Positions 4,515 through 60,540 of a stretch of 64,000 bases of DNA are shown here, one piece after another (the stretch's first letter is position 1; each line of letters begins with the position of its first letter). A model generated the notes under the pieces. That model searched no databases. It saw only the letters and a program-made list of their open reading frames with translations, and was not told the origin of the DNA. Both the position numbers and the translations under genes were made by a program. This stretch comes from a virus: the IMG/VR virus record IMGVR_UViG_3300045988_180913; one strand, written 5' to 3'.

Positions 4515-4877
4515 ATGTTTGCTCTTGTTAAATTTTATGAAAAAGATTTTGTAAATGAATATGGTGATTTAAAAAAAGCATATTTAAATTCATGTAAATG
4601 GGTATCATCAAAAGTAATGTCAAAAAATATTGATAAAGTTGTATGGAAAACAATTAAATCTTCAGAAACAACCATAACTTTACAATTATTTTTTACATTG
4701 GATGTAAATGATGAAAAAAGGGAGCATTGTAAAGCATGTAAAGAGTTTCATAAATCATTCTTTATAAATGAGGAATATAATTGCAATTCATGCAAATTAA
4801 ATGCTTTTTTCAATAGAATGAAAAGTAAAGAAAATGTAAGTAAAGGATACTTTAAAGAAAAAATAAAGAAAGAATAA
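4515..4877 (+). CDS. hypothetical Cys-cluster protein
   Basis: AAGGAG RBS (4501-4506) lies 8 nt before ATG 4515. Contains a CKACKEF...CNSCK zinc-ribbon-like cluster. Confidence 0.6.
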   Translation: MFALVKFYEKDFVNEYGDLKKAYLNSCKWVSSKVMSKNIDKVVWKTIKSSETTITLQLFFTLDVNDEKREHCKACKEFHKSFFINEEYNCNSCKLNAFFNRMKSKENVSKGYFKEKIKKE

Positions 4878-4891
4878 AGGGAGGGAAAGTT

Positions 4892-5569
4892 TTGCCACCT
4901 AAAATGAAAAAGGTGTCTCAATACACGGAGGAAGAGCTTTTAAATTTTTCAAGAGAAGAAATGATAGATGGAATGACAGATAGAGAAGTAGCCTTTAGTG
5001 AATATTATATAAATGATTTTAATATTAAAATGGCTGCAATAAAAGCCGGCTACAAAACAATGTCAAATAAAACAATATCAAAGCTTGTAAGAAATAAACA
5101 ATGTGTTATTGATTATATTGCTTGGTTAAAAGTAAGATTATATCATAAAGCAGCAATAAGTGCAGAAGATATATTAAACGGATATGCAAAAATGGCATTT
5201 TATGATATAACTGATTATATTGAAAAAAGAGGAAATAAAATAGTTTTAAAGGACTTTGATAAAATAGATGGTCAAATAATACAAGAGATAACACAAAATG
5301 CTTCAGGTGGTATAACAATTAAGTTCCCTGATAGATTAAAAGCTTATGATAAGTTAGAGAATTATATGGACAATAACCCATATGATTGGAAGAGAAGAAT
5401 GGAAGAACAAAAGCTCGAGATAATGAAGGAAAGAATTAATATTGAAAAATCAAAAGCAGGTTTAATAAATGAAATTGAGGATGATGGGTTCCTTGACGCA
5501 TTGGAAAAAGCTGCATCATTGATGAATGAAAATGATATAGAAGAGGGAAATGTTGAAAATGGAGCCTAA
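4892..5569 (+). CDS. terS: terminase small subunit (Terminase_2-like)
   Basis: REVAFSEYYINDFNIKMAAIKAGYKTMSNKTISKLVRNKQCVIDYI matches the F..EY....N...AA..AGYS HTH pattern. TTG start after GGGAGGGA, with an alternative ATG at 4904. Confidence 0.75.
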   Translation: MPPKMKKVSQYTEEELLNFSREEMIDGMTDREVAFSEYYINDFNIKMAAIKAGYKTMSNKTISKLVRNKQCVIDYIAWLKVRLYHKAAISAEDILNGYAKMAFYDITDYIEKRGNKIVLKDFDKIDGQIIQEITQNASGGITIKFPDRLKAYDKLENYMDNNPYDWKRRMEEQKLEIMKERINIEKSKAGLINEIEDDGFLDALEKAASLMNENDIEEGNVENGA

Positions 5570-5969
5570 TTGCACATTAATTTTTGTAATTGATAAAAAT
5601 GATAATATATTGCTTTTAAATAGAGAAAATGAACCAGCAAAAGGTACATGGTGTGGTATCGGTGGAAATATAGAAAAAGATGAAACAATATATGATTGTG
5701 CAAAAAGAGAGTTGCATGAAGAAACAGGAATAAAAACAAATAAACTTAAATTATTAGGAAAGTATGACAAAATAGAATCATATATTTTTGTGCTTATTGT
5801 AAATGATTTAAAAGAAATATACAAAAAAGACTTAATAAAAACAAAAGAAGGTATTTTGTCAATAAAGAAATTAAGATGGACATTAGAAAATAATGAAGGT
5901 ATAGTTGAAGAAACAAGAAATGCATTAAACTTTGTAATTAATAAGTTAGGAGGAAATAAAGATGAGTAA
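5559..5969 (+). CDS. Nudix hydrolase
   Basis: Nudix box GGNIEKDETIYDCAKRELHEETGI (G.5E.7REuXEEXGu). The likely start is ATG 5559, downstream of GAGGGA. Confidence 0.85.
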   Translation: MEPNCTLIFVIDKNDNILLLNRENEPAKGTWCGIGGNIEKDETIYDCAKRELHEETGIKTNKLKLLGKYDKIESYIFVLIVNDLKEIYKKDLIKTKEGILSIKKLRWTLENNEGIVEETRNALNFVINKLGGNKDE

Positions 5970-6228
5970 ATTAAATTTAAGTTTAATTGTTGAAAGTGAA
6001 AATGAAACAAAAGATATTTTAATGGATATGCTAATGAACTATGATAATTTGCATATTTATAAAGTAAAGAAGCAAGAAAATATTATAAACACAGAAACAA
6101 AAGAAATAAAAAAAGGAAGTTATAAAATAGATTTTATTTTTGAAAAAGAAAGTAAAAATGCAGAAATAACATTAGAAGGAAGGCCAAAAAACTTATTAAA
6201 AACAAATACTATAGAGAGTGAAAATTAA
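5962..6228 (+). CDS. hypothetical protein
   Basis: 88-aa ORF with a GGAGGAA RBS upstream. Confidence 0.6.
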   Translation: MSKLNLSLIVESENETKDILMDMLMNYDNLHIYKVKKQENIINTETKEIKKGSYKIDFIFEKESKNAEITLEGRPKNLLKTNTIESEN

Positions 6229-6249
6229 AAGATATTTAGTAAAAATCTA

Positions 6250-6278
6250 TTTACAAACACTATATAATGTGTTAAAAT
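6250..6278 (+). promoter_or_regulatory. sigma-A-type promoter (family copy P3) with conserved leader
   Basis: AATCTATTTACAAACAC. TTTACA (6250-6255), 17 nt, TGT-TAAAAT (6270-6278). The leader ATAAATATAAGGAA...TTAGTTAAAAATTTAGGAGG runs to ATG 6326. Confidence 0.7.
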
Positions 6279-6325
6279 ATAAATATAAGGAACAAAGGTT
6301 AGTTAAAAATTTAGGAGGCAAGTGA

Positions 6326-6748
6326 ATGACAAATTTTGAAAAGTATCATGAAGAAATGATTGAGAAAAAATATAGAGCCGTGAAAGACGGAAAACCTATA
6401 TCATGTAAAAGCGCTGGTTGTTCAGAGTGTGAACTTTACGATGAAGACTCAACATGTACTTATTCATTGCTAAAATGGCTGGCGAAAGAGTACAAAGAAC
6501 CAAAACTGAAGCTGACAGAAAAAGAGATGTATTTATGTAAATCGTTAAGTAGTGGGTATATAGTAAGAGATATGAACGGTGACTTATACTTTTATGCAAG
6601 TAAGCCTGGAAAAGGTGTTTATGCATGGTGGTGTGGTAATGGTGAAATTTGCAGGCTTCCCCTAATTCCATGGTTTTCATTCATCAAATGGGAAGACAAA
6701 GAACCGCATAGCATTGAGGAAATGCTTACATGGGATGTGGAGAAATAG
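6326..6748 (+). CDS. hypothetical Cys4-module protein (paralogue group with 7407 and 7657)
   Basis: Contains CKSAGCSECELYDEDSTCTYSLLKWLAKE. Visibly richer in G/C codons than its neighbours. Confidence 0.6.
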   Translation: MTNFEKYHEEMIEKKYRAVKDGKPISCKSAGCSECELYDEDSTCTYSLLKWLAKEYKEPKLKLTEKEMYLCKSLSSGYIVRDMNGDLYFYASKPGKGVYAWWCGNGEICRLPLIPWFSFIKWEDKEPHSIEEMLTWDVEK

Positions 6749-13281: not shown

Positions 13282-13485
13282 ATGTATAATAATATTTATG
13301 GTATTAAAGATTGTATCAATGAAATAAATAAGGATTTATTGAGTGTAAGTAATGATATGTGTAATTTAAAGAATATGTTTAATAAAAGAATAATGACATT
13401 TGATTCTAATTTTGAAGAGAGGCAAAAGAATGCTAAAGTTTCAAATAACTTCTCAAAATTTAAAGTTGGTAGAAAAACCAAGTAG
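13282..13485 (+). CDS. hypothetical small protein
   Basis: 67-aa ORF starting 2 nt after the portal stop. Overlaps the next gene by 56 nt. Confidence 0.4.
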   Translation: MYNNIYGIKDCINEINKDLLSVSNDMCNLKNMFNKRIMTFDSNFEERQKNAKVSNNFSKFKVGRKTK

Positions 13486-14014
13486 AGATATAGTTGATAA
13501 TCAAATAAACTTTTTGTCAGCAAATTTTGTATTTAGTGAAGAATGGACAGATATTAAAAAGTTAGTTCAATTTACTCAAGAAAGAGCAAAAGACAATTGG
13601 TTAGTAAACATAGACTTGGGAACATCTAATGATGTAACTATCAAAATGCCAAGTGATATAAGAGCAGGAATATTAAATATAGCTTGTTATGGCGAGATTA
13701 CAGAGGAAGATGAAGATGGTGTAAAAGATTTCATAAAGAAAGTAGGAACAACAAAATATAGCATTCCAATTGTTGAATCTGGTATAAATGATGAAGGCTT
13801 AGAAATTGGCATTGTTGGTGATAAGAATTATGTACATGAGCAATTACAAGCATCTAATGAATGGAGTGTAAATCATAAATTAAAAAAATATCCAAGTGTG
13901 TCAATTATAGATAGTGCAGGTACAAATGTAATAGGAGAGGTTACATATTTGGATGAAAATAGTTTGAGAATAAATTTCTCAAGTATAATGAGTGGTAAGG
14001 CATTTTTAAATTAA
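13430..14014 (+). CDS. putative virion/fibre-associated structural protein
   Basis: ORF 13400..14014. Likely start ATG 13430 after GAGAGG. Predicted beta-rich. First gene of the fibre island. Confidence 0.45.
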   Translation: MLKFQITSQNLKLVEKPSRDIVDNQINFLSANFVFSEEWTDIKKLVQFTQERAKDNWLVNIDLGTSNDVTIKMPSDIRAGILNIACYGEITEEDEDGVKDFIKKVGTTKYSIPIVESGINDEGLEIGIVGDKNYVHEQLQASNEWSVNHKLKKYPSVSIIDSAGTNVIGEVTYLDENSLRINFSSIMSGKAFLN

Positions 14015-14028
14015 GAATTGGGGGTAAA

Positions 14029-15108
14029 ATGATATACTTAGTTAATTTAAATTTATCAGGGAACGAATTGCAAAATGCTGTAATACAACCTGTTGGTGTG
14101 TTACCTGGAAGTGCAAAAGAAGGCCAAATTGTTTATAATTCTTCTGAAAAGAATTTATATATTTATAATGGATCAGCATGGAAAGTTGTTGGAAAAGAAT
14201 ATACTTTACCTGTTGCATCTTCAAGTACTTTAGGTGGCATTAAGGTAGGTGCAGGGCTTGCAATAAATGATGGTGTTCTTAGTGCAACAGGTGGCGGAGT
14301 TGCTGATGCTGTAGATTGGTCAAATGTACAAAACAAACCGGAAGGTCTTGTTATAGATGAATCATATGTGCATACGGACAATAATTATACTAATGTAGAA
14401 AAGACAAAATTAAGTGGTATTCAAAATGGTGCAGAAGTAAATGTGCAAGCTGATTGGAATGAATCTTCAAGTTCATCTGATGCATACATAAAAAATAAAC
14501 CAACAATCCCTTCAACAGCTTCAGAGGTAGGAGCAATACCTACAAGTGAAAAAGGGTCAAATAATGGAGTTGCTACATTAGATGGTTCAGGCAAAGTTCC
14601 TGCTGCACAATTACCTTCTTATGTAGATGATGTTGTTGAATATGATAATAAATCAGCATTTCCACAAACAGGTGAAGATGGCAAAATATATATAGCTAAG
14701 GATACCAATTTAACATACAGATGGTCAGGAACAGAATACATAGAAATTTCACCAAGTTTAGCATTAGGTGAAACAAGTTCAACTGCATATCCTGGTGATA
14801 AAGGTAAAATTGCTTATGATCATAGCCAAGTAAAAACAGGAAATCCTCATAACACAAAGTTTAGTGACTTACCTGATAAACCAAAGCTTGTTAAAACACA
14901 GGAGGATACATTACCTACAACAGTAAGTACAAAAACAATTACAATTGCGGGAGGAAAAATATTTTCCACAATGGTGTATGATTCTGTAACTTTTGAAGAA
15001 GTAATTGTCGATAAAAAATATGATGCAACAAGAGCAAATGTTACAATCACTACAGCAGCAAATCCTACAAATGCATTGGCCATTGTTGTCTCATATATAG
15101 AAATATAA
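14029..15108 (+). CDS. tail fibre-like protein
   Basis: N-terminus NLSGNELQNAVIQPVGVLPGSAKEGQIVYNSSEKNLYIYNGSAWKVVG and STLGGIKVGAGLAINDGVLSA are typical phage fibre N-domains. Confidence 0.65.
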   Translation: MIYLVNLNLSGNELQNAVIQPVGVLPGSAKEGQIVYNSSEKNLYIYNGSAWKVVGKEYTLPVASSSTLGGIKVGAGLAINDGVLSATGGGVADAVDWSNVQNKPEGLVIDESYVHTDNNYTNVEKTKLSGIQNGAEVNVQADWNESSSSSDAYIKNKPTIPSTASEVGAIPTSEKGSNNGVATLDGSGKVPAAQLPSYVDDVVEYDNKSAFPQTGEDGKIYIAKDTNLTYRWSGTEYIEISPSLALGETSSTAYPGDKGKIAYDHSQVKTGNPHNTKFSDLPDKPKLVKTQEDTLPTTVSTKTITIAGGKIFSTMVYDSVTFEEVIVDKKYDATRANVTITTAANPTNALAIVVSYIEI

Positions 15109-15120
15109 TATTAATATATG

Positions 15121-15228
15121 TCAGAGGCTTCAGATTTAATTACAATAAATTATTTATATCTTATTACATTTTTCCATTAATAAAAACAAAAAGTTCATTA
15201 TGGATTAATTTGAAGTCTTATTTTTTTA
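15121..15228 (+). terminator. extended hairpin plus U-tract element (homologous to 60556..60654)
   Basis: TCAGAGGCTTCAGATTTAAT (15121-15140) pairs imperfectly with ATTAATTTGAAGTCTT (15204-15219). TATTTTTTTAT follows. Shares CAGAGGCTT / AAAGTTCATT / CTTATTTTTTT strings with the copy after dnaE. Confidence 0.5.
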
Positions 15229-15242
15229 TATGGTGATTGAAA

Positions 15243-15407
15243 ATGAAAAATTTAAGCAAAATAGATGAACAAAAAGATGTTATTGATAAGGAATATGTAG
15301 ATAATAGTGTTGCAGTAAAAGCTCCAGCTTATACTTATAGCACGACAGACCTTATTGCTGGAACAAGCCAATTAGAAACAGGAAAGCTTTATTTTGTGTA
15401 TGAATAG
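15243..15407 (+). CDS. small fibre-associated protein (54 aa; paralogue of 17060)
   Basis: MKNLSKIDEQKDVIDKEYVDNS...GKLYFVYE compared with MKILSKIENANDIPSKEFVDQK...GVLYCIYEEE. Confidence 0.45.
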   Translation: MKNLSKIDEQKDVIDKEYVDNSVAVKAPAYTYSTTDLIAGTSQLETGKLYFVYE

Positions 15408-15419
15408 GGTGAAAAATAA

Positions 15420-17036
15420 ATGGCTAAAAATGCATATGTTGGTGTAGACAATAAGGCGCGTAAGGTAAAAAATATTTATGTTGGTGTGGATACCCAGGTT
15501 CCCATTTATGAAGAAAAACAAATTACTTTTAGTCGTGAAAACATAAATGAGTTTTTTACGGTGCAGAATAATTCAGCGTATCCGTTTGAGATAAACCCCA
15601 GCACGACCAATCAGGTTGGGTTTGTACCGGGAAACATTGGTGTAAATAGTTCTACGTCACAGATCATACTTACAGCAAACCAGGTAATTGTACTCAAAAA
15701 GATTTATGCTCAATATTATACGGAACAGAATTTTGACAAACTCAACATAACCGTTAAGGGAGAAGTTATACTTAGCAATGCTTCAGGTATAGACATATAT
15801 GACCAAACTGTAAATAAGACGTTAAATGTGGGCGATAATATAGTCATGAGTTACGTAAAAGACAGTACCACCCATCATAACCAAGAAACAATGACTAATA
15901 TTATTCTTACATGTAATCCTATTACAATTAAAACTATTACGGGTTATGAAACAAAACCAGTAGCTCGAAAGATAAAAAAGGCTTATGTTGGTGTGAATGG
16001 AAAAGCAAGATTATGTTATTCAGTGGACGAAGGATATAGCAAACTAAAAAAGATAGCTCAGTACAAGTTCAACGATCAACCTAATGATATAACGTATGTT
16101 CCAGGTGAAGACGGTTGCTATATTGGTACAAATGGTGGTCGTGTGTATAAGTTTAATAATAATGCACAAATAGTATGGCAAAAAAGTGTATTTGACGAAA
16201 TTGGCTATATAAAATCAATTAGACCATTTGATGCAGTTGATGGCCAAATTATGGTTGGAGGAGTAAAAGCTGTTACTGCAATTGAACATGATGGGTTTTA
16301 TAATGAATTTGTAAAAACTATTAATGATCAAGCGAAAGGAGTTTATATATCTAATCAAAGAGGTGAGGAACATAATCGCAATTTTATTTTATATGCTACA
16401 TCAGTAGCAGGTTATTATTCATACGTATATAGTGAAGATCAATCTTTGACTAATTATCTTGTTGAAAGAGGTTCATTGCTAAACGTAAAAGAAATAAAAT
16501 GTTGTGGCTCATTTTATGTTGATCGTGGTTTTAGTGCTAATGATAGCATTAGGCATCTTATAAGTTATTATGCACATACTGGTACAAGAGAGTTTAAATT
16601 ATTTAACTCAAGTGGTTCTTCCATTGGTAATGAGTTTGAATTGTCAGCACAGACAACTACACCAATTACAGCAATAGGCTCATTTGGGAAGAGTGGGATT
16701 AAGTTGTTAGTCGGATATGGAAATGGATTGTTAGAATGCCTCGATGTATCCACTATACCTTATTCCGTTGTTTGGAGAAATAGAATATCAGATCAAGGAG
16801 CAATAACATCAATTTCCGTAGGGGAAAGAATTACGATAGTATCATATAATTACGGAAAAATTAGGATATACGATACTAATACCATGAATGAGATTGAAAA
16901 TGATGGAGACTATGTGAAAAGAATTACAGCCATTTCTCAAGGTGATACTAATGATCATATTGTTTATGTAATAAATGGAACTGGAGGGAGTGGAGAAACA
17001 AGTAATTCATTATGTGTATTTGAATATCAAAATTAG
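15420..17036 (+). CDS. receptor-binding-type protein: AYVGV-repeat N-domain plus beta-propeller-like C-domain
   Basis: KNAYVGVDNKARKVKNIYVGVD and ARKIKKAYVGVNGKARL repeats. The C-terminal half has repeated beta-strand blades (YGKIRIYDTNT...). The first ~700 nt are visibly CpG- and GC-enriched. Confidence 0.55.
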   Translation: MAKNAYVGVDNKARKVKNIYVGVDTQVPIYEEKQITFSRENINEFFTVQNNSAYPFEINPSTTNQVGFVPGNIGVNSSTSQIILTANQVIVLKKIYAQYYTEQNFDKLNITVKGEVILSNASGIDIYDQTVNKTLNVGDNIVMSYVKDSTTHHNQETMTNIILTCNPITIKTITGYETKPVARKIKKAYVGVNGKARLCYSVDEGYSKLKKIAQYKFNDQPNDITYVPGEDGCYIGTNGGRVYKFNNNAQIVWQKSVFDEIGYIKSIRPFDAVDGQIMVGGVKAVTAIEHDGFYNEFVKTINDQAKGVYISNQRGEEHNRNFILYATSVAGYYSYVYSEDQSLTNYLVERGSLLNVKEIKCCGSFYVDRGFSANDSIRHLISYYAHTGTREFKLFNSSGSSIGNEFELSAQTTTPITAIGSFGKSGIKLLVGYGNGLLECLDVSTIPYSVVWRNRISDQGAITSISVGERITIVSYNYGKIRIYDTNTMNEIENDGDYVKRITAISQGDTNDHIVYVINGTGGSGETSNSLCVFEYQN

Positions 17037-17059
17037 TGAAAACTGACGAGGTGTGCAAA

Positions 17060-17206
17060 ATGAAAATTCTTAGTAAAATAGAAAATGCTAATGATATTCC
17101 AAGTAAAGAATTTGTTGATCAAAAGATAGTTGGTCTTACTGAGCAGGAATATGAACAACTTGAAAAAAAAAAAGGAGTACTCTATTGTATATATGAAGAG
17201 GAATAA
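17060..17206 (+). CDS. small fibre-associated protein (48 aa), contains an A11 run
   Basis: Paralogue of 15243. An A11 homopolymer lies at about 17164-17174, inside the ORF. Confidence 0.4.
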   Translation: MKILSKIENANDIPSKEFVDQKIVGLTEQEYEQLEKKKGVLYCIYEEE

Positions 17207-17209
17207 TAA

Positions 17210-17368
17210 ATGTTGTATTTAAATTTTAATAAAATAAAAGATTTAACATTAAATTCAAAAATGATTAAAAAAGCTTATTTAAATAATAAATTGGTATATA
17301 AGAAAATATACTATTTTAGTTTTGATAAAGATGAAGCAGGTTGGGATCAAGGTATTTGGTTTGTTTAG
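17210..17368 (+). CDS. small ORF (52 aa) resembling the AYVGV-repeat N-terminus
   Basis: MIKKAYLNNKLVYKK echoes KIKKAYVGVNGKARL in the 15420 protein. Possibly a gene remnant. Confidence 0.3.
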   Translation: MLYLNFNKIKDLTLNSKMIKKAYLNNKLVYKKIYYFSFDKDEAGWDQGIWFV

Positions 17369-17504
17369 TGTATAAATAGAATGTATGCAATAAGATATCT
17401 GGTAACACTTGAGATAAATAAAAGATATATTGAAATTAAAAACCTTAATAAAAATAATAAAATGATTAGAAAGTAAATCTAAGTCTTGTATGAGGTATGT
17501 AAAT

Positions 17505-18533
17505 ATGAGTAAAATTGATGACTTATTATATAAAAGATGTGGAGATCCCAAAAACACATATTATTCAGAGCAAGTAATAACTCAAAATGAATATTGTGGT
17601 GTTAAAAGATGGAATGATGCTGGTTATTTAGGTGAAGGTGTTGTTGTATGGACAACAGAAAATCATAAAGGCAATTCATCAGAACATGGATGCAAAACTC
17701 ATGATAGAATATTTGATGCTGCTCCAGGTGCAACTATTATAAATGCAAGTATATCTGCAATTTATAGTAATGAAGAAATTGAAAAGTTTGAAATAATTTA
17801 CCAACCATCTCATGATTCTAATGAAAGAATAAAGTATGAGCCTGAAGAATTTATAAAAAAATTTAAAATAAAGATTATTACAAGATCTATTGGTGGAGGA
17901 ATGTTTAGTGATCCAAAATCAAGTAAAATGGGAAGATTTTGGAAAGAAATGCAAGATAAGTATAATTTAATATTTTTTAACTCTTTTGGTAATAAAGGGA
18001 ATGAGAATAAAGATGAAACCGGTGATTTAGCTATTTATGTTCAAGCTTGTCATCTGGATAATAAAGGAAAACCTGTAAGAGATTATTATTCATCAACAGG
18101 AATTTCGGATCATAATTTTATTGATTTTAGAGGATGGGATTCGGGTACTTCTTTCTCTGCTCCTTATTTAGCAGGAAAAACTGCTTTATTAATTGAAAGA
18201 TATGGTGATTTAACACAAGAAGATGTCATTCAATATTGGAAAGATCATGTAGAAGATTTGGATGATGAAGGTTATGATAAATATACAGGTTTTGGGTTAC
18301 CAATTTTAGGTGATGTAAATGAAGAATATGACTTTCCAAGCAAAGAAGGAAATAAAGGTGAAGATGAAATGAAAAAGTTTAAAGATGTACCAGAAAATGC
18401 ATGGTATAAAGAAGCTATAGATTATGTTGTTGAAAAAGGATATATGAAAGGTGTTAGTGAGGATGAATTTAAACCTGATTCACCTTTAACAAGGGCACAA
18501 TTAGCACAAGTTTTATATAATTTAGAAAAATAA
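17505..18533 (+). CDS. subtilisin-like (S8) peptidase with C-terminal SLH domain
   Basis: His motif EHGCKTH, oxyanion SFGNKG, Ser motif GTSFSAPYLAGKTALL. The C-terminus FKDVPENAWYKEAIDYVVEKGYMKGVSEDEFKPDSPLTRAQLAQVLYNL is an SLH repeat. The canonical DTG Asp position reads WTTE. Confidence 0.75.
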   Translation: MSKIDDLLYKRCGDPKNTYYSEQVITQNEYCGVKRWNDAGYLGEGVVVWTTENHKGNSSEHGCKTHDRIFDAAPGATIINASISAIYSNEEIEKFEIIYQPSHDSNERIKYEPEEFIKKFKIKIITRSIGGGMFSDPKSSKMGRFWKEMQDKYNLIFFNSFGNKGNENKDETGDLAIYVQACHLDNKGKPVRDYYSSTGISDHNFIDFRGWDSGTSFSAPYLAGKTALLIERYGDLTQEDVIQYWKDHVEDLDDEGYDKYTGFGLPILGDVNEEYDFPSKEGNKGEDEMKKFKDVPENAWYKEAIDYVVEKGYMKGVSEDEFKPDSPLTRAQLAQVLYNLEK

Positions 18534-18542
18534 GGAGAAGAA

Positions 18543-19384
18543 ATGGCTGGCATTAATGAATTTTTAATTTTTGATGAGAACAACCAAAATACATTAAGTA
18601 ATGAATCATATTCGATTGATACACAAAGGCTTAATGGAGTAGGGGGGGCATAGCAAGATCTAATTTGTATAATAAAGCTATGAGGCAGGCTACAATGTTA
18701 AGTTTTACTTTAGGACAAATCATATCTGAAAATGACGGAAATGCTACAGAGAATGCACAAGAATTAAAAGAAAGCATTAAAAATAAAGTATTAAATTCAC
18801 AATATATAGGTGTGTCTAATGAAGTAAATAGTAAATTAAGTGTTAATAATGTAGATAAAGCATTAATTAAATTAAGTCAAAATAATGAAGAGGTAGCGGA
18901 CAATAGTTTACATATTATAACTATACAAGAGTGGAAGAGCTGGAGCATTACTGTAAATGAGTTAAAACAAAAATGGGAAAATGATGCTTATGATTTATCT
19001 AAAATCCCAACTGATAGAGGAAAAATATTTAATTTGATTTTTGATACAGAGGTAAGTTGTGATTTTAGATGTGGTGACGCTGGCTTTTTTCGTTTTTATG
19101 GATACGGAGAAAGTTCTAATACAAAAGAAAGTTTATACAGTGAATACAAATACCCAGATGATGGTGAAAATGGTGTAATAAATTTTAGCACAACAACAAT
19201 ATGGAATAATGCTGGAACAGCATTTGTGTTTTATAGTGAAACTTCTAATAATAGTAATATAATTGTTGATTATATTAGAAATAAAAATACAATAAAGAAA
19301 ATAACTTTTAATAGCAACAGTGCAGGTCGTACAACCAAACCAACAAAAATTAGAACAAGAGTAAGAGCTGTAGTTGTTGAGTGA
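18543..19384 (+). CDS. tail fibre paralogue 1, frame-interrupted at a G7 tract
   Basis: MAGINEFLIFDENNQNTLSNESYSIDTQRLNGVGGA* stops at 18651. With G8 it reads ...NGVGGGIARSNLYNKAMRQAT and joins ORF 18665..19384, matching paralogues 19404 and 20945. Confidence 0.7.
18642..18648 (+). repeat. G7 homopolymer inside fibre gene
   Basis: AGGGGGGGCA. One extra G restores the frame. Confidence 0.95.
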
Positions 19385-19403
19385 ATAAAGGGAGGTGATA
19401 ATT

Positions 19404-19937
19404 TTGCCAGGTATTAATGAGTTTCTTGTTTTTAATGAAAATAAAAATAATACTTTAGAAAATGAAACTTATTCAACAGATAAGCAAAGAATTGACGGAT
19501 TACAAGCAGGTGTAGCAAGATCAAATTTGCAAAATAAGTTTCAAAGAAATGTTTCAGTGATGACAGCAACTTTTGGTAAAATAATTGCAGATAGAGGTAT
19601 GAATGCAATAGAAGAAGTTGATGAATTAGAGGAAGCATTAAAATCTACTTTTGGAAATGCAGGTGGATGGAATGTAACTTTAATTAATTTTAATGTTAGT
19701 GATTGGATTGTAGATGATACATTAAAAAAGTATGTTTGTACAAAAACAATAAATGGTATTACTTCTGATGAAGAAGAGCAATTAATTATAACAATTCCAA
19801 AGATTGAGACTATGGATTTATTTATGAAGTTTGGAATAACAAGCTATAGTCAATCAGTAAATACATTAAAATTTAAATGCAAAAGAAAACCAAATAAATT
19901 AGTAAAATGCTATATAGCATATTGTTATTTAAAGTGA
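19404..19937 (+). CDS. tail fibre paralogue 2 (short)
   Basis: GGGAGGTGA RBS, then TTG 19404. PGINEFLVFNENKNNTLENETYSTDKQRIDGLQAGVARSNLQNKF is the shared N-domain. Confidence 0.65.
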   Translation: MPGINEFLVFNENKNNTLENETYSTDKQRIDGLQAGVARSNLQNKFQRNVSVMTATFGKIIADRGMNAIEEVDELEEALKSTFGNAGGWNVTLINFNVSDWIVDDTLKKYVCTKTINGITSDEEEQLIITIPKIETMDLFMKFGITSYSQSVNTLKFKCKRKPNKLVKCYIAYCYLK

Positions 19938-19947
19938 GGTAAATAAG

Positions 19948-20531
19948 ATGTTATTAAATCCATTAGGTATGTACTCCTCAGGTGGTACAATTGAGGGGGG
20001 GCTCTGGAGGAGCTAAAGAACTTTAAAGAAATAAATACCAAATTAGATATTGATAGTTTTACAGAGCCTTCAAATATAAAAAATGTAAAAATGACAGATG
20101 TATTAGATATACAAGGCTCTGGAACATTATTTGCTTGCTTCTCTAATGGTCAAACAAGCACTGAATATCATGACCATGTTATAATTAAAATTACAATTGA
20201 TAATGAAGTTGTGTTATATTCTTGTACTTTGTTCTACAATGGTTTTGCTTATAATCAAGGGGTAGGAGTAACCTTTGCAAATAGCAATAATTTTTTAAAG
20301 ATATATAGTGTTGATAATGTAGGGTCAAGTGCTGGAAATAGAATAGAATGGGATCCAATTGATGAATGGGATAAAAGTTGTACAAAAGATGTGCAAGAAT
20401 ATAGCATATATGTAACTGATATTCCTATAGCATTTAATGATTCAATAAAAATACAAACTTATTCATTTTGCCAAAGTGAACCAAAAAATAAAAAATATAA
20501 TGTTTATGTAAGATATAAATTGGATGAATAA
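19948..20531 (+). CDS. fibre-module protein, frame-interrupted at a G7 tract
   Basis: GTGAGGT RBS plus ATG 19948 gives MLLNPLGMYSSGGTIEGGLWRS*. With G8 it reads ...IEGGGALEELKNFKEINTKLD... and runs into ORF 20091..20531, whose own ATG has no RBS. Confidence 0.6.
19995..20001 (+). repeat. G7 homopolymer inside fibre-module gene
   Basis: GAGGGGGGGCT. One extra G restores the frame. Confidence 0.95.
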
Positions 20532-20547
20532 ATTGGGAGGAAGCAAA

Positions 20548-20742
20548 ATGAATATAGTGAATCAATATGAAAAAGATGGGTATATTTTTATTGAGTATGA
20601 TAATGGTACAATTGTAAAAGAGATAAAGCAAATAAAAAATAATGATAAGGTTATATTACCTTTGTCAGAATCTGAAGTTGCAATACTTGATACCTCTGTA
20701 AATGTAGAGTATCTTGTTTGCCTTTCAGATTTGAATATATAA
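20548..20742 (+). CDS. hypothetical small protein (fibre module)
   Basis: GGGAGG RBS before ATG 20548. Confidence 0.5.
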   Translation: MNIVNQYEKDGYIFIEYDNGTIVKEIKQIKNNDKVILPLSESEVAILDTSVNVEYLVCLSDLNI

Positions 20743-20771
20743 AACTATCTATTTTTAAGGAGGTATTTATT

Positions 20772-20921
20772 ATGACGTATGAAAGATGTAAGAAATTAAT
20801 TCAGACTGGTAATTATGAGCAGGAAGATATGTTAAAGAAACTTGATGTATTTCTTTTAGCTGACAGAATTACAACTGAGCAATACAATGAGCTTACAGGC
20901 ATGATGCAAAAGAAAGAATAA
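20772..20921 (+). CDS. XkdX-like small protein
   Basis: AAGGAGG RBS. MTYERCKKLIQTGNY...LLADRITTEQYNELTG resembles the XkdX family found after PBSX-type fibres. Confidence 0.45.
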   Translation: MTYERCKKLIQTGNYEQEDMLKKLDVFLLADRITTEQYNELTGMMQKKE

Positions 20922-20944
20922 ATTCTCTTATATGGGAGGGAAAC

Positions 20945-22741
20945 ATGGCTGGGATAAATGAGTTTATGATATTTGATGAAAATAATCAAAATTCAATGAC
21001 AAATGAAACTTATAGTACAGATGAACAAAGATTAAATGGTGTAGCTTCAGGTATAGCAAGAAGCTCTCTTTATAATAAAGCATTAAGACAAGCAACAAAA
21101 ATGTCAAAAGAACTTGGATTATTTTTGTCACAAAAAGGTAATGATGTAACAGAAGATAGTGATATTGCAGGAATGCTTCAGGAGGCAATATCAAAAGACG
21201 GACTTGGTCTTAGTGAGTATTTGTATATGACAGATGCAGGAATAAGATCAAAAGATGACTGGAATTATGTGAGTGAGTGCAACCCAGGATATGCTTTTTT
21301 TGATTCATCTAATTATTTTATTTTTAATGGCTCAACTAATTCAGAAATTTCAAAAAAAGCTACCACAGTTATTTCAAATAAATCAAATATTATTTGTGCT
21401 AAGATTTTTAGTAAGCTTACAGAAAAATATATGATTATTTCAAGTAGTGATGGTGGTAAGACTTGGGTTAAAAGAATTGAAAGTGATGATCCTATGATGC
21501 TTTTGTATGATGAAAGAAAAGATTATTTTTATGCAATAACATCAGAATCAACACATAGAAAATCAACAAATGGAACAAATTGGAAAACTGCTGCATCTTC
21601 ACCAAGTTATTCAAAAGATCCATCAAGAGCAAAATATATACAATATTGTTATGCAGCAAATAATGTTGTTATATACACATGTAGTATTGCTTCTAATGGA
21701 ATAAATGAAACATATATTTCTTTAGATGGCGGAAATAGCTTTGAAAGTGGTACAATAGGAAGTGATTTTATTGGTGGTTTTAGATTAAGAGATGGCTATT
21801 TTTATAGCAATACAAATAATAAATGGTATAAATATCACAGTTTGTCAAATGATAATAATTTAATTAGTGGTGAAACTACAACTATATATGTTTCAGGTGC
21901 AGGTCAAAATCCAAAAAATGCATCTTGGACAAGTATAAATATTGACACAGAAGTGAAACAGCCTATTGCATTCTTTTTTGATATAAAAAAGCATAATTCT
22001 TCAGAAAATGTTGTTGGTTGCATTGGCCTCAATGGGTATGTGTACATAATTAGCTCCAATAATAGCTTTCAAAGAAAAACATTCTCTTATGTAAATACTC
22101 ATGGTGAAGGCATTGCTGGTACGAAAATGATTCTTTATAGAGATAGTGGTATGACAACACGTGAAGTTCCTTATGTAATAAGAGATGGAAATAATGAGTA
22201 TATTTCATTTGGAAATAATTTATATTATTTTTCTTCGAATACAATATATCAAGTAGGTAATAGTGGGTCAGGTGAAGAGTTTGACCAAATACCATATGAG
22301 TCAATAAATCCATATTATGCAGTAGCATTCTATTTTAATTATAAAGTATTATTAGAAAATAAAATGAGATGTATGTTTTATGGTTCAATTTTTGAAAAAG
22401 GCACGTATCAAAAGTATGCAATGAGAACTACAAGTAATGATAAAAAGTTATCACTTGGTAAAATGTTTATATTTGAGGAATTTTATGTATCATTAAGTAG
22501 TTATGATGCAACAATTGCTTGTAATGGAGCACCAATAATTGGTTTGGTGTCATCAATAAATGATACTTATGGCAAACCACGTTTGTATACTAAAGGTAAC
22601 TTAAGGAAAGTTGAAACAGGTAGTAACATTCAACCAAGTAATCATTATATGTTTTCAGAGAACAAAATAATGAGAATTGTAAATGCTAACATGTATGAAG
22701 AAGAAAATGCAACTTTTTCTTTAATAGAAATCATGTCATAA
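20945..22741 (+). CDS. tail fibre paralogue 3 (long; beta-propeller/sialidase-like repeats)
   Basis: The shared N-domain is MAGINEFMIFDENNQNSMTNETYSTDEQRLNGVASGIARSSLYNKALRQAT. The body carries S.DGG.TW-type motifs (SSDGGKTWVK, SLDGGNSFES), like BNR/Asp-box repeats. Confidence 0.65.
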   Translation: MAGINEFMIFDENNQNSMTNETYSTDEQRLNGVASGIARSSLYNKALRQATKMSKELGLFLSQKGNDVTEDSDIAGMLQEAISKDGLGLSEYLYMTDAGIRSKDDWNYVSECNPGYAFFDSSNYFIFNGSTNSEISKKATTVISNKSNIICAKIFSKLTEKYMIISSSDGGKTWVKRIESDDPMMLLYDERKDYFYAITSESTHRKSTNGTNWKTAASSPSYSKDPSRAKYIQYCYAANNVVIYTCSIASNGINETYISLDGGNSFESGTIGSDFIGGFRLRDGYFYSNTNNKWYKYHSLSNDNNLISGETTTIYVSGAGQNPKNASWTSINIDTEVKQPIAFFFDIKKHNSSENVVGCIGLNGYVYIISSNNSFQRKTFSYVNTHGEGIAGTKMILYRDSGMTTREVPYVIRDGNNEYISFGNNLYYFSSNTIYQVGNSGSGEEFDQIPYESINPYYAVAFYFNYKVLLENKMRCMFYGSIFEKGTYQKYAMRTTSNDKKLSLGKMFIFEEFYVSLSSYDATIACNGAPIIGLVSSINDTYGKPRLYTKGNLRKVETGSNIQPSNHYMFSENKIMRIVNANMYEEENATFSLIEIMS

Positions 22742-22768
22742 ACAAATAAGAAAATAGGATGTGTAAAT

Positions 22769-23131
22769 ATGTATATAATAAATAAAATTAATATGTCACT
22801 TCAAACCTGGAGTTATGATTATGTTCCGGAAAATTATATGATTTTTCCAAATAAGTTTTTGGAAGTATACTTCATGAGTGGAAAGAAATTTTCTGGCATT
22901 GTAAAACTTACATATAATGAAGATGAAACAGAGATAATAGATGTAAAATGGGATGAAGAAAGATATCAAAAGTTGCTTGAAAGTTATGTTGAGGAAGAGG
23001 ATGATTTAAAAACTTTTGATGATATAGTAAAAGAAAATGCATTGTTAAAAGCTCAAGTGGAAGCATTAAGCCAAAATCAGGAGTTTCTTGAAGATTGCTT
23101 AATTGAAGTTGGTCAAGTTATTTATGCTTAA
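22769..23131 (+). CDS. fibre-associated coiled-coil protein (XkdW-like position)
   Basis: 120-aa ORF. The C-terminus LKAQVEALSQNQEFLEDCLIEVGQVIYA is typical of small post-fibre proteins. Confidence 0.45.
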   Translation: MYIINKINMSLQTWSYDYVPENYMIFPNKFLEVYFMSGKKFSGIVKLTYNEDETEIIDVKWDEERYQKLLESYVEEEDDLKTFDDIVKENALLKAQVEALSQNQEFLEDCLIEVGQVIYA

Positions 23132-56831: not shown

Positions 56832-57773
56832 ATGTATATTGAAGTAAATAGTGTTGCTGAAATATATAAGACTTTAGGTAGAGAGCTATTGATGAATGGT
56901 GAAAAAGTCTATCCAAAAGGTATTGAAACAAAAGAAATATTAGCTCCAAAAATTAGATTATTAAATCCTAAAAATAATCTTGCATATAATGAAAGTAGAA
57001 AATTTAATCTAATTTATGCTTTAGTAGAAAGCTTAATGTTATTTAATGAAACAAAAGAAGTAAAATATTTTAGTAAATTTAATAATAATATTATAAATTA
57101 TTCTGACAATGGAAAATCTTTATATGGAGCATATGGTAAAAGAATAGCTCCAATGATAAAAAAAATTATAAACAAACTTAAAAATGATAAAGATTCAAGA
57201 CAAGCTGTATTATCAATATATAATAATGATTTTTATATAGATACAAAAGATGTACCATGTACATTAAGCATTCAATTTATAGTAAGAAATGAAAAGTTGA
57301 ATGCAATAACAACAATGAGAAGTAATGATATAATCTGGGGATTACCATATGATATATTTATGTTTACAAATTTACAACAAGTTATAGCAAATACTTTAAA
57401 TCTTAAATTAGGATGGTATGAGCATAATCCCACAAGTATGCATGTATATTCAAATCATTACAATATGCTTAAAGAAATGTCAAACACTTGTGAGCCAATT
57501 GAAACAAATAATGATTTAGATTATTCATCATTTAAGTATCAAGCATGTAAATATTTGTTGCCAATTGTATTTGATGATTTGGATAATGATACAAGTGAAA
57601 ATGAATTAGAAAATATATGTAAGATGTTATATGATAAGCAAGAACTTGAGTATCTTATATTGATAATGAAAGAGATAATGTATAGAAGAAAAAAATATGA
57701 CTCTATAATTTGGAATATAAAAACACCTGAATGGTCTAAAAAATTTACAAAGAGGTGGAAAGAAAATGCTTGA
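56832..57773 (+). CDS. thymidylate-synthase-family pyrimidine hydroxymethylase-like enzyme (Asp at base-specificity position)
   Basis: DSRQAVLSIY, catalytic VPCT, MRSNDIIWGLPYD and SMHVYSNHY parallel ThyA and T4 gp42. The residue after G-L-P-Y is D (as in gp42 D179), not N (ThyA N177). Confidence 0.7.
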   Translation: MYIEVNSVAEIYKTLGRELLMNGEKVYPKGIETKEILAPKIRLLNPKNNLAYNESRKFNLIYALVESLMLFNETKEVKYFSKFNNNIINYSDNGKSLYGAYGKRIAPMIKKIINKLKNDKDSRQAVLSIYNNDFYIDTKDVPCTLSIQFIVRNEKLNAITTMRSNDIIWGLPYDIFMFTNLQQVIANTLNLKLGWYEHNPTSMHVYSNHYNMLKEMSNTCEPIETNNDLDYSSFKYQACKYLLPIVFDDLDNDTSENELENICKMLYDKQELEYLILIMKEIMYRRKKYDSIIWNIKTPEWSKKFTKRWKENA

Positions 57774-60540
57774 TTTGCATAGGCATACAGAATTTAGTAC
57801 ATTTGATGGATTTGGTAAAACAAGTGAAGTTGCTAAATATGCAAAAGAAATAGGATATGATGCTCTTGGCATATCAGACCATGGCAATATGTCAGGTTTA
57901 GTTACTCATTATTTTTCGTGTAAAGAAAATGGTATAAAGCCAATAATGGGTTGTGAAGTTTATTTTATGCCAAAGTTTAAACAAACAAGAACATCATATC
58001 ATTTATGTTTATATGTAAAAAATTTAAAAGGGTATAGAGTTCTTAATGAATTGGTAACAAAAGCAAATTTTGATAATTTTTATTATAAAGCAATAATTGA
58101 CTTTGATATGCTTGAAAAAAATCATGAAGGATTGATTTGCACATCAGCTTGTATAGGTGGAGCTATTTCAACTTTAATTTCAAAAGGAAAAGATGATGTA
58201 GCATATAATGTTGCAAAAAGATTTAAAGATGTTTTTGGTGATGACTATTATATAGAGATTCAACCTTATAAGTTGACAGAAAAAGGGCTACAGGAAGCTG
58301 TAAATATTAAATTAATGCAGTTGGCAAAAAAATTAAAAATAAAATGTATATTGACATCAGATTCACATTATATAAATAAAGATGATTTTGATACATATTT
58401 AAAAATGCATGATATTGCAGGTCATAAAGATTTTGGTGCTCAATATGAAGAAAGATATATGCCAACAAAAAAAGAATTAATAAAAAGATTTGTGAAAATG
58501 CATGGTGATGATAGTGAATTATTTGCAGATGAAATAGAGGCAAAAAAATTTGCAAAGACATGCATAAAAAATCTCGATGAAATATCTTCAAAAGTAGATG
58601 ATGAAATTCTTGAAAAATTACCATTAGCTTTACCTGTTTTTAATGAAAATATAAATAGTACAAAATTATTAAAATTAAATATAATTAAAGGTTTAAAGAA
58701 AAGAGGAAAGTATAATAAACAATATCTTGATAGATGTAAAGAAGAATTTGAAGTAATAAAGTATCATGGTTTTGAAGATTATTTTTTAATGGTTCAAGAT
58801 TATGTGCAATATGCAAGAGACTCTGGTATTGAGGTTGGACCAGGAAGAGGGTCAGTTTGTAATAGTTTAGTTGCTTATGCTCTTGGCATTACAGATGTGG
58901 ATAGTATAATTTTTGATTTAGATTTTAGAAGATTTTTGAGAAAAGATAAGAAAAAATTTCCAGATATTGATATGGACTTTGAAACAAGCAGAAGAGGAGA
59001 GGTCATTGAATATCTTGTAAATAAGTATGAAAGTAAAGCAGCAAGAATATGTTCATATGGATTATACAAAGTAGATAATTTATTAAATGATTTATTCAAA
59101 ATTTGTGGATTAAAACTTGCTGATAAAGATGATCCTGAAAAAAGTGAAAAAGATAAAACAATTATATCGATTCAAAAAGCAATAAAGAATAAAGTAAAAG
59201 AATATATAGATGAAGAAACATCTTCATTTAATTATGATGAAGCTCAATATGATGAAGAAATAAAATATTATAACAACAAATATGATGATATTATAAAACA
59301 TTTTAGTAAGCTATATAAAAAAGTAAGATTCTTTGGTACTCATGCAGCTGGTGTTGCAATCTCAGGATCAAACATATTAAATTATACCTCAATAGTAAGA
59401 AGAGCAAAAGATATGTACACAACTACATATGATCTTGTTGATATTGAAAATATTAATGTAATTAAATTTGATATGCTTGGTCTTAGAACAATGAGTATTA
59501 TGAAAGAGTTAAGAGATATAACTGATAGTGATCATTATTTTAATTATGATTTGCTAAATGATGAAAAAATATATGAAGAATTTGGAAAAGCAAATACAGA
59601 TGGTATTTTTCAATTTGAAGCAAAAGGTGCAAAAAATATACTAAAAGAAATTGAATGTGATTGCTATCAAGATGTAATTGCCGCAAGTGCATTAAATAGA
59701 CCTGGTCCATTATCATTAGGTATGGTGGAAGAATATGCAAATGAAAAGAAAAATGTAAGAAATGGTATAAAAGAAAAAAATCATAAAGATAATATATTTT
59801 TTCAATATGCAGATGATACTTATGGTACATTCGTTTATCAAGAGCAGATCATGAAAGTATGCACTGAACTTGGTGGAATGACATGGGCTGAGGCTGATAA
59901 GGTAATGAAATTTTTAAAATCAGGCTCAGGCATGACAGAAAAAGCACTTGAAATAAAAATGCAAGAAGAAGAAAAGCTTACAAATAAATTTGTTGAAGGT
60001 GCAAGCAAAAAAGGAATAAAAGAAAAAGAAGCAAGAGAAATTTTTAATAAACTTTTAGTATATTCATTTAATAAAGGTCATGCTGTTGGATATGCATTGA
60101 TTTCAATAGAACAAATGTTTTACAAAATTTATTATAATACACAATTTTGGTATGTTACATTAAAGTATGCAAATGAAAAAGATGTACCAAGATTGAGTTC
60201 AAAAGCTGTAAAAGATGGTTGTGTTATTTTACTTCCTCATGTAAATGGAGCAGCATATCATAAGATAACAAAAATAGATGGAGATGTTTGCATAAGAGAA
60301 GGAACTTCCACAATAAAAAATGTCGGTTTAAAAGCTGCTCAATATATAGAAGAAGAAAGAAACAAAAATGGTAAATTTAAAGACTATGATGATTTTTATG
60401 ATAGAATGGAACCATATAGAAGAGTTGTAAACAAAAGAGTTTTAGAAGCATTAAAAGAAAGTGGAGCATTAGAGTTTGATAAAAAAATATATTTTGGTAG
60501 ATGTCAAAAATATAATAGTGCTCTATATGGTAGGGGGTAG
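57766..60540 (+). CDS. dnaE: DNA polymerase III alpha-like replicase (DnaE type, PHP domain)
   Basis: PHP motifs LDLHRHTEFSTFDG, ISDHGNM, GCEVY and TSDSHY. Palm motifs FPDIDMDF, HAAGVAI and KFDMLGLRT. 924 aa. Confidence 0.9.
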   Translation: MLDLHRHTEFSTFDGFGKTSEVAKYAKEIGYDALGISDHGNMSGLVTHYFSCKENGIKPIMGCEVYFMPKFKQTRTSYHLCLYVKNLKGYRVLNELVTKANFDNFYYKAIIDFDMLEKNHEGLICTSACIGGAISTLISKGKDDVAYNVAKRFKDVFGDDYYIEIQPYKLTEKGLQEAVNIKLMQLAKKLKIKCILTSDSHYINKDDFDTYLKMHDIAGHKDFGAQYEERYMPTKKELIKRFVKMHGDDSELFADEIEAKKFAKTCIKNLDEISSKVDDEILEKLPLALPVFNENINSTKLLKLNIIKGLKKRGKYNKQYLDRCKEEFEVIKYHGFEDYFLMVQDYVQYARDSGIEVGPGRGSVCNSLVAYALGITDVDSIIFDLDFRRFLRKDKKKFPDIDMDFETSRRGEVIEYLVNKYESKAARICSYGLYKVDNLLNDLFKICGLKLADKDDPEKSEKDKTIISIQKAIKNKVKEYIDEETSSFNYDEAQYDEEIKYYNNKYDDIIKHFSKLYKKVRFFGTHAAGVAISGSNILNYTSIVRRAKDMYTTTYDLVDIENINVIKFDMLGLRTMSIMKELRDITDSDHYFNYDLLNDEKIYEEFGKANTDGIFQFEAKGAKNILKEIECDCYQDVIAASALNRPGPLSLGMVEEYANEKKNVRNGIKEKNHKDNIFFQYADDTYGTFVYQEQIMKVCTELGGMTWAEADKVMKFLKSGSGMTEKALEIKMQEEEKLTNKFVEGASKKGIKEKEAREIFNKLLVYSFNKGHAVGYALISIEQMFYKIYYNTQFWYVTLKYANEKDVPRLSSKAVKDGCVILLPHVNGAAYHKITKIDGDVCIREGTSTIKNVGLKAAQYIEEERNKNGKFKDYDDFYDRMEPYRRVVNKRVLEALKESGALEFDKKIYFGRCQKYNSALYGRG

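Follow-up and report, generated by a model that had tools for sequence, protein, structure and literature searches.

Two length-variable G tracts as probable phase-variation switches of fibre-module genes in a human-gut myovirus

Background

Phase variation of adsorption proteins that is encoded by the phage itself has so far been documented experimentally essentially only in Campylobacter Fletchervirus phages, for which poly-G tracts in receptor-binding protein genes are described (Sorensen et al., Cell Rep 2021, as reported in bioRxiv 10.1101/2025.10.21.683753 and PMC12823448). As a general idea, phage contingency loci are only now being proposed, with candidates put forward in T2/T4 (agt, rIIA) and in other coliphages (Gomez, Barrick & Waters, bioRxiv 10.1101/2025.10.21.683753), and the BASEL survey finds simple sequence repeats (SSRs) under-represented in tail-fibre genes, at 0.77x (bioRxiv 10.1101/2025.10.21.683753). 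Here we describe two tracts of seven G's (G7) in a 64,000-nt stretch of viral DNA from the IMG/VR record IMGVR_UViG_3300045988_180913, hereafter the window, each of which lies near the 5' end of a gene of a fibre-like module and, at its present length, places the remainder of that gene out of frame.

The window comes from a myovirus of the human gut with a genome of about 64 kb, which is uncultured, common and widespread. We consider it likely that the two G tracts are phage-encoded contingency loci, namely SSR phase-variation switches of two accessory fibre-module proteins. Hypermutability of the tracts at the DNA level is very well supported, and gene context together with analogy to known systems suggests that it would serve an adaptive role in host range.

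Results

Two G7 tracts set the reading frames of two fibre-module genes

The window has a G+C content of 28%, with 18.6% G and 9.2% C on the + strand, on which all genes lie. We found exactly two G runs longer than 5 nt, both of them G7 on the + strand, at 18642-18648 and 19995-20001. The remaining G or C runs of at least 5 nt in the window are four G5 and one C5, and C runs longer than 5 nt are absent. A preliminary description of this DNA had placed the two G7 runs at the same positions and had likewise put the longest other G or C runs at 5 nt. The tracts, and the parts of the genes on either side of them, are as follows.

18642-18648, + strand: tract T1, G7 at codons 34-36 of gene 1; an OFF length, with G5, G8 and G11 in frame
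19995-20001, + strand: tract T2, G7 at codons 16-18 of gene 2; an OFF length, with G5, G8 and G11 in frame
18543-18653, + strand: gene 1 stub, 36 aa (MAGINEF...NGVGGA, then stop), with ATG at 18543 and TAG at 18651-18653
18650-19384, + strand: gene 1 body, 243 codons past the tract, out of frame in the window and open once one G is added
19948-20016, + strand: gene 2 stub, 22 aa, with ATG at 19948, stop at 20014-20016 and GAGG 8 nt upstream of the ATG
20003-20531, + strand: gene 2 body, 175 codons past the tract, out of frame in the window and open once one G is added

The start of gene 1 is preceded by AGGAG at 18533-18537, 5 nt upstream of the ATG at 18543. Placed as they are within coding sequence, the tracts set the reading frame by their length. 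At T1, G5, G8 or G11 gives a single open reading frame (ORF) at 18543-19384 of 279-281 aa (280 aa with G8), and at T2 the same lengths give a single ORF at 19948-20531 of 193-195 aa (194 aa with G8). With G7 or G10 a stop follows 1 codon past T1 and 4 codons past T2, and with G6 or G9 it follows 4 and 7 codons past the respective tract. The window, with G7 at both tracts, is thus in the OFF/OFF state. Both product classes, full-length and truncated, are present in databases for both genes. The proposal of the preliminary description that G8 would restore one long ORF in each gene agrees with these frames, as does its statement that only the tract separates the start at 19948, with its ribosome-binding site, from the gene 2 body.

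Base composition alone makes two G7 runs unremarkable, since dinucleotide-preserving shuffles of the window contain a mean of 0.46 such runs and 10 of the 100 shuffles contain two or more. We attach significance to the tracts not for their composition, but because both lie within the first 60 codons of fibre-module genes, because both use the dicodon GGG-GGG and because they are hypervariable among relatives.

In-frame internal ATGs occur just past the tracts, at 18680 and 18695 for T1 and at 20091 for T2, the one at 18695 being preceded by GAGG at a distance of 10 nt. From these starts, OFF genomes might even so produce shortened proteins without the N-terminal anchor.

Tract lengths differ among closely related genomes

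Next, we investigated tract length across 65 distinct related loci, using DNA from ENA, Logan, JGI and IMG/VR human-gut assemblies, among which T1 could be scored in 63 and T2 in 59. Relatives carrying G8 or an interrupted tract had been named in the preliminary description as a check, and both kinds were recovered, alongside G6, G7 and G9; the interrupted tracts that keep the frame are A+G7, GGGGGTGG and G7A.

T1 alleles (63 loci): G7 39, G6 11, G8 9, A+G7 3, G9 1; A+G7 is in frame (GTA AGG GGG GGC)
T2 alleles (59 loci): G7 33, G8 14, G6 3, GGGGGTGG 3, A+G7 2, A+G6 2, G7A 1, G9 1

G7 is the most frequent natural allele at both tracts and should not be regarded as an occasional slip from a wild type of G8. 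A flank-anchored scan of DNA, which is independent of gene calls, also returned mainly G7/G7. When the OFF stub peptides of T1 were looked up exactly, we found the G7 form on 656 contigs, G6 on 174, G9 on 74 and G10 on 1, and the index of the assembly collection lists the G7 stub peptide of gene 1 in 1218 blocks. At the protein level, a search with restored gene 1 returned 280-aa proteins and many 229-aa proteins consisting of the body only; among the listed cluster members, 280-aa forms occur on 22 contigs and body-only forms of 229 or 234 aa on 103. The search with gene 2 returned 194-aa proteins and body-only calls of 134-146 aa, and gene 2 protein calls that start with MRGGALEEL can arise only from G9, those that start with MRGALEEL only from G6.

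The strongest cases are those in which the flanks agree and the tract does not. Two loci from different samples (L006 and L007) show 0 substitutions in 2802 bp, yet carry G6 and G7, respectively, at T1. Within a clade of identical flanks, comprising the window, L025, L028, L030, L031 and L033, T1 is G7 or G9 and T2 is G7 or G8. We built a neighbour-joining tree from the flanks, with 0.45 substitutions per site in total, on which parsimony requires no fewer than 12 length changes for T1 and 15 for T2. Changes between ON and OFF number at least 5 for T1 and at least 10 for T2, and only a rooted, recombination-free tree would polarise them individually. On the same tree, G9 is nested in a G7 clade and G6 in G7 clades, indicating that both insertions and deletions have occurred. 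Of the slipped-strand phase variation of host range put forward in the preliminary description, phase variation is supported by identical flanks with differing tract lengths, and host range is the part that we infer. Contig breaks at the tracts, taken as a proxy for heterogeneity within a sample, gave one suggestive case, in which a contig (L023) ends 9 nt past T2.

The two tracts vary independently. Joint states of T1 and T2 were OFF/OFF in 29 loci, OFF/ON in 17, ON/OFF in 9 and ON/ON in 2 (Fisher p = 0.30). Mutual exclusivity of the two switches was considered and rejected, given that ON/ON exists (L038, L039) and that the 2x2 table gives the p-value above. Genomes with a pure G8 at both tracts number 0 of 9, which is not significant.

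Both genes have intact bodies, and one shares an anchor module with constitutive fibre genes

We examined the two genes and the fibre paralogues of gene 1, of which two lie in the same part of the window.

19395-19937, + strand: 180-aa fibre paralogue with the anchor module (phrog_11303, E = 3.6e-3), without a G tract (DGLQAGVARS)
20945-22741, + strand: 598-aa fibre paralogue with the anchor module (phrog_11303, E = 2.2e-8), without a G tract (NGVASGIARS)

An N-terminal module matching phrog_11303, annotated as tail fiber, is common to gene 1, the 180-aa gene and the 598-aa gene, and the match of gene 1 itself is weak (residues 5-67, E = 1.2e-4). Restored gene 1 NGVGGGIARSNLYNKAMRQAT aligns with NGVASGIARSSLYNKALRQAT of the 598-aa gene (20945) and with DGLQAGVARSNLQNKFQRNV of the 180-aa gene (19395), in agreement with the alignment to two paralogues that had been pointed out from the restored sequence. 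The gene consists of a conserved N-terminal stalk, which continues past the tract, and a variable C-terminal beta-sandwich head, and its full-length 280-aa homologues (P0001-P0007) are 93-99% identical. The AlphaFold2 (AF2) model has a helical N-terminus and a beta head with a predicted local distance difference test score (pLDDT) of about 70-80. A fold search with it returned only generic matches to jelly-rolls, lectins, carbohydrate-binding modules (CBMs) and heads of receptor-binding proteins, with template-modelling scores (TM-scores) of 0.2-0.3; these modelled matches are weakly suggestive, being compatible with a binding head and not diagnostic of one.

The 194-aa product of gene 2 is invariant at its N- and C-termini and hypervariable at its centre, and its full-length homologues of 194 aa share 55-98% identity. 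Profile searches against Pfam, PHROGs and PDB gave no usable match, the best being CPE0329, a CBM-family protein, at E = 0.26, and the AF2 model is poor (pLDDT 41). The gene 2 product is probably host-interacting.

The bodies of both genes are preserved irrespective of tract state, that of gene 1 being intact in 44 of the 44 loci that cover it and that of gene 2 in 40 of 40. For gene 1, the ratio of nonsynonymous to synonymous substitution rates (dN/dS) calculated from OFF genomes came to 0.056 for the initial 100 codons of the body and to 0.74 for the head, with the same values from ON genomes; for gene 2 it is 0.44 in the N-terminal part, 1.14 in the centre and 0.27 in the C-terminal part. 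Intact bodies and these ratios indicate functional genes with hypervariable regions of the host-interaction type rather than pseudogenes.

The 180-aa gene is constitutively in frame and is called as a 177-aa gene in all relatives. The 598-aa gene is split in six relatives (L020, L027, L036, L037, L038/L039) by differing single-base frameshifts at A/T runs, including T7 to T8 at 21295 and A7 to A8 at 21352, which suggests that the phage tolerates the loss of single fibres or that such loss is at times favoured. We also considered whether the split gene holds a tract of its own and rejected this, because the breaks fall at different A/T runs in different contigs. A third fibre paralogue, of the P0030 type, has a G tract at the same codon position as T1. 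In one relative, L057 (NZ_JAHZIA010000011.1, a 68,268-bp contig of an Anaerofustis sp. metagenome-assembled genome, MAG), the region 4600-6650 holds a rearranged fibre module with three G tracts, namely G7 in gene 2, GAG+G8 in the P0030-type fibre and a third in a gene-1-type fibre, and all three are out of frame (OFF).

Points against contingency loci and alternative explanations

Several points weigh against reading the tracts as contingency loci. The tract-length differences seen are differences between assembled consensus sequences and not within one phage population. OFF alleles account for about 80% of T1 and about 65% of T2, frequencies that are approximate since the census of loci was partly ascertained through gene calls, and the commonest joint state is OFF/OFF. 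Both length distributions are unimodal around G7, as a mutational equilibrium with weak selection would give. The role of gene 1 in receptor binding is putative, coming from a weak PHROG match, from its position and from low-TM jelly-roll matches, and gene 2 is without a recognisable function. Finally, the sole hint to the host among the relatives is a weak one, the binning of L057 with an Anaerofustis MAG.

OFF predominance and the unimodal lengths are also what would be expected of a non-adaptive mutational hotspot, in which tracts that arose by chance at a permissive site would repeatedly knock out and restore accessory fibre genes without any selection for switchability. Two G7 runs are not improbable by composition, and the frameshifts of the 598-aa paralogue, which lacks a tract, in six relatives show that loss of a single fibre is tolerated, both of which fit this explanation. 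The codons of the tracts speak otherwise. GGG is the rarest glycine codon (8.6%) and GGG-GGG is used in 0 of the 69 Gly-Gly dicodons of intact ORFs, whereas both tracts use it; residues at the position of T1 in paralogues and homologues are AS, QA, TS or EG, and QQ (CAA CAA) in Agathobaculum phage AB434P2. Judged from these sequences, the G tract is not required by coding. A single synonymous change of GGG to GGA or GGT, the preferred codons, would erase a tract, and nevertheless a run of at least six G's is kept in 63 of 63 T1 loci and in 56 of 59 T2 loci. The recurrence of the tract at the same position in the third paralogue, the constraint on the intact bodies and the placement of both tracts near the 5' end, which is typical of contingency loci, argue in the same direction, and we regard an unselected hotspot as improbable.

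We give somewhat less weight still to programmed recoding, under which G7 would be the functional allele, the full-length proteins would arise through -1 ribosomal frameshifting or RNA-polymerase slippage, and the variation in DNA would be incidental. That G7 is the commonest length at both tracts, that both would need the same -1 shift (equivalent to one added nucleotide) and that purifying selection acts on the bodies in genomes with G7 would all suit such a mechanism. T2 is moreover in the X_XXY_YYZ register (G_GGG_GGG), and the T2 tract takes part in a weak structure that is more stable than those of shuffled sequences (z = -1.9 to -2.2). T1, in contrast, is out of register (A_GGG_GGG) and lacks a downstream structure; when the 80 nt downstream of each tract were folded in search of a stimulatory RNA structure, z was -0.12 for T1 and -1.86 for T2, with no compact hairpin adjoining the latter, and neither is convincing. 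The length of the heptamer is not conserved (G6-G10), and the G6 and G9 alleles, which make up about 27% of the OFF stubs (248 of 905 contigs) and have intact bodies, would need the opposite shift. G8 and the in-frame interrupted alleles are frequent, and in these a frameshift would abort the protein. In addition, heptamers of G only are poor slippery sites, and slippage of bacterial RNA polymerase usually needs A/T runs of 9 or more. Recoding is nonetheless a possible source of leaky expression.

To judge sequencing quality, we compared 20 coding A6, A7, T6 or T7 runs between 14694 and 23384 across 15-30 contigs each. These runs are invariant apart from three single-contig changes, namely two extra T's at T6 runs in the error-prone assembly L027 and one change in the divergent L011; L037 and L038/L039, which were fetched later, add A7-to-A8 and T7-to-T8 changes within the 598-aa gene. 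For the same strain, ENA and Logan assemblies give the same tract lengths (L001-L003; L018 and L022). The preliminary description had named systematic under-calling of homopolymers as its alternative, and an artefact in which a true, uniform G8 is read as G7, perhaps made worse by modified bases, can be set aside almost entirely: the extra T's in L027 do imply that some contigs of the collection are error-prone and a phage-encoded thymidylate-synthase-family enzyme could modify a base, but each tract shows four length states among hundreds of assemblies that were made independently and through different pipelines, some alleles are longer than G8 and others shorter, the control A/T runs are stable, ENA and Logan agree on the tract state of one strain, and consensus indel errors at 7-nt runs are rare in short-read assemblies, which most of these are.

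Some intergenic runs also vary among relatives, with A10 or A11 at the A11 of 17163-17173 and T5, T6 or T7 at the T7 of 15221-15227, as is expected for long intergenic homopolymers.

Genome organisation, the third G tract and the probable host

The genome was annotated with PHROG and Pfam scans, which identify the following features outside the two switched genes.

9515, + strand: terminase
11652, + strand: portal
13400-23131, + strand: fibre-like module, followed by the SPP1-type holin
23614, + strand: SPP1-type holin
32372, + strand: major head protein
36084, + strand: sheath
38448, + strand: tape measure
40799, + strand: baseplate hub
43748, + strand: baseplate wedge
45658, + strand: M15 endolysin
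56832-57773, + strand: diverged thymidylate-synthase-family protein (PF00303), adjoining the DnaE-type polymerase
57766-60540, + strand: DnaE-type polymerase with a PHP domain
667-741, near the left end: tRNA Gln-TTG
848-923, near the left end: tRNA Met-CAT

At the left end itself, positions 1-52 are all A, which probably reflects the contig end or the assembly rather than biology.

A third G tract lies at 14020-14025, in the Shine-Dalgarno region of a 359-aa fibre-like gene (ATG at 14029), and reads GGGGGT in the window. Relatives (L006, L007, L008, L020, L041, L043-L045) have G5, G7, G8 (5 loci) or G9 (2 loci) there, followed by CT, and L009 has the canonical GAGGAGG in place of the tract. 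This tract is unlikely to be an ON/OFF switch, as its length varies but the distance from its 3' edge to the ATG does not.

Directly upstream of gene 1, the protein encoded at 17490-18533 combines a C-terminal S-layer homology (SLH) domain with a subtilase (Peptidase_S8) fragment, and may be a cell-wall-anchoring or surface-degrading virion protein. The SLH domain hints at a host with SLH-binding cell-wall polymers. A megablast search of 17400-22800 against the 50,697 phage records of INPHARED found no near-identical phage record. Among isolates, Agathobaculum and Clostridium_AP gut phages come nearest, with about 48-52% polymerase identity, and the related contigs of 63-68 kb derive from human-gut metagenomes. 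The host is probably a Gram-positive Clostridia gut commensal.

Discussion

We propose that, during replication by the phage's own DnaE-type polymerase, strand slippage in the G:C homopolymers would add or remove single G's much more often than background indels arise. The full-length protein would then come from G8, or in some lineages from A+G7, and other lengths would give an early stop. With two switches that flip independently, one lineage would keep yielding progeny of four genotypes. Gene 1 is predicted to share the N-terminal baseplate-anchor module of its two constitutive paralogues and to differ from them in its C-terminal head, so that turning it ON most likely adds a receptor-binding fibre to the virion or swaps one for another. 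Switching of fibres would in turn act as bet-hedging against variable host surfaces. Within this scheme, the mechanism and rate of slippage, the incorporation of both proteins into virions and any effect on adsorption or host range are what we infer.

A more specific form of the proposal can be offered tentatively. The conserved, exchangeable anchor module may itself carry the switch, which would be inherited by any receptor-binding head that is recombined onto it, and two to three such cassettes might be OFF by default beside constitutive fibres. A minority of the virions from each burst would then bear additional or different fibres, amounting to combinatorial bet-hedging in a phage of a Gram-positive commensal that is independent of the Campylobacter case.

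If the two tracts are indeed contingency loci, they would constitute an independent natural example in an abundant, uncultured myovirus of the human gut, probably infecting a Clostridia commensal. Allele frequencies can be read from existing metagenomes, and switching within and between people is measurable from public reads without culture. Fibre genes of gut phages that appear frameshifted should be neither automatically corrected nor dismissed as pseudogenes, and switchable fibres can be overlooked when host range is predicted from one consensus genome. The searchable literature yielded no report of switches like these in phages of gut Firmicutes.

When comparing the locus with known systems, the tail-assembly chaperone frameshift of the lambda G/GT type is similar in that overlapping frames are joined at a slippery run in a tail-module gene by a -1 shift, with T2 in register, but differs in that here the run length is polymorphic in DNA, in-frame alleles exist, a stimulatory structure is lacking and the genes are fibre-like and neighbour the lysis genes, whereas the chaperone genes precede the tape measure. 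The invertases of the Mu G-segment and the P1 C-segment and the diversity-generating retroelement of BPP-1 provide alternative tail-fibre specificities within one lineage, the outcome that we propose here; unlike them, the present locus would use a homopolymer only, without an invertase, inverted repeats or a reverse transcriptase. The loci proposed in T2/T4 are homopolymers of at least 6 nt in phage ORFs whose frame is reversibly shifted by polymerase slippage, which their authors also read as bet-hedging, although they are mostly A/T runs and lie in defence-evasion and other genes. In contrast to the under-representation in the BASEL survey, the only long G runs of this genome sit in the fibre module.

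The bacterial SSR contingency loci, such as the poly-G/C tracts in surface-structure genes of Campylobacter, Neisseria and Haemophilus, share with T1 and T2 a 5'-proximal tract, ON/OFF frameshifting, independent switching of several loci and lengths that are polymorphic among near-identical genomes; the tracts described here differ in being virus-encoded and replicated by a phage DnaE-type polymerase, and they are shorter than the G8-G13 typical of Campylobacter. The closest parallel is with the Fletchervirus phages. There, G tracts lie inside tail or receptor-binding genes, and here inside genes of a fibre-like module; both genomes are those of low-GC myoviruses with few other G runs and with several tracts each, and in Fletchervirus, as proposed here, a change in length switches the frame and gives rise to virion subpopulations. 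The differences are that the host here is probably a Gram-positive gut Clostridia, in which we see no sign of poly-G phase variation, that the evidence consists of metagenomic population data instead of experiments, and that the tracts are shorter, with a mode of G7. When 50,697 phage records were searched by tblastn with the anchor module of gene 1, only Agathobaculum, Providencia and Bordetella phages were returned and no Fletchervirus homologue, and this lack of homology to Campylobacter phages points to an independent origin of an analogous mechanism, one in which the tract is placed in a conserved N-terminal anchor module common to exchangeable fibre heads.

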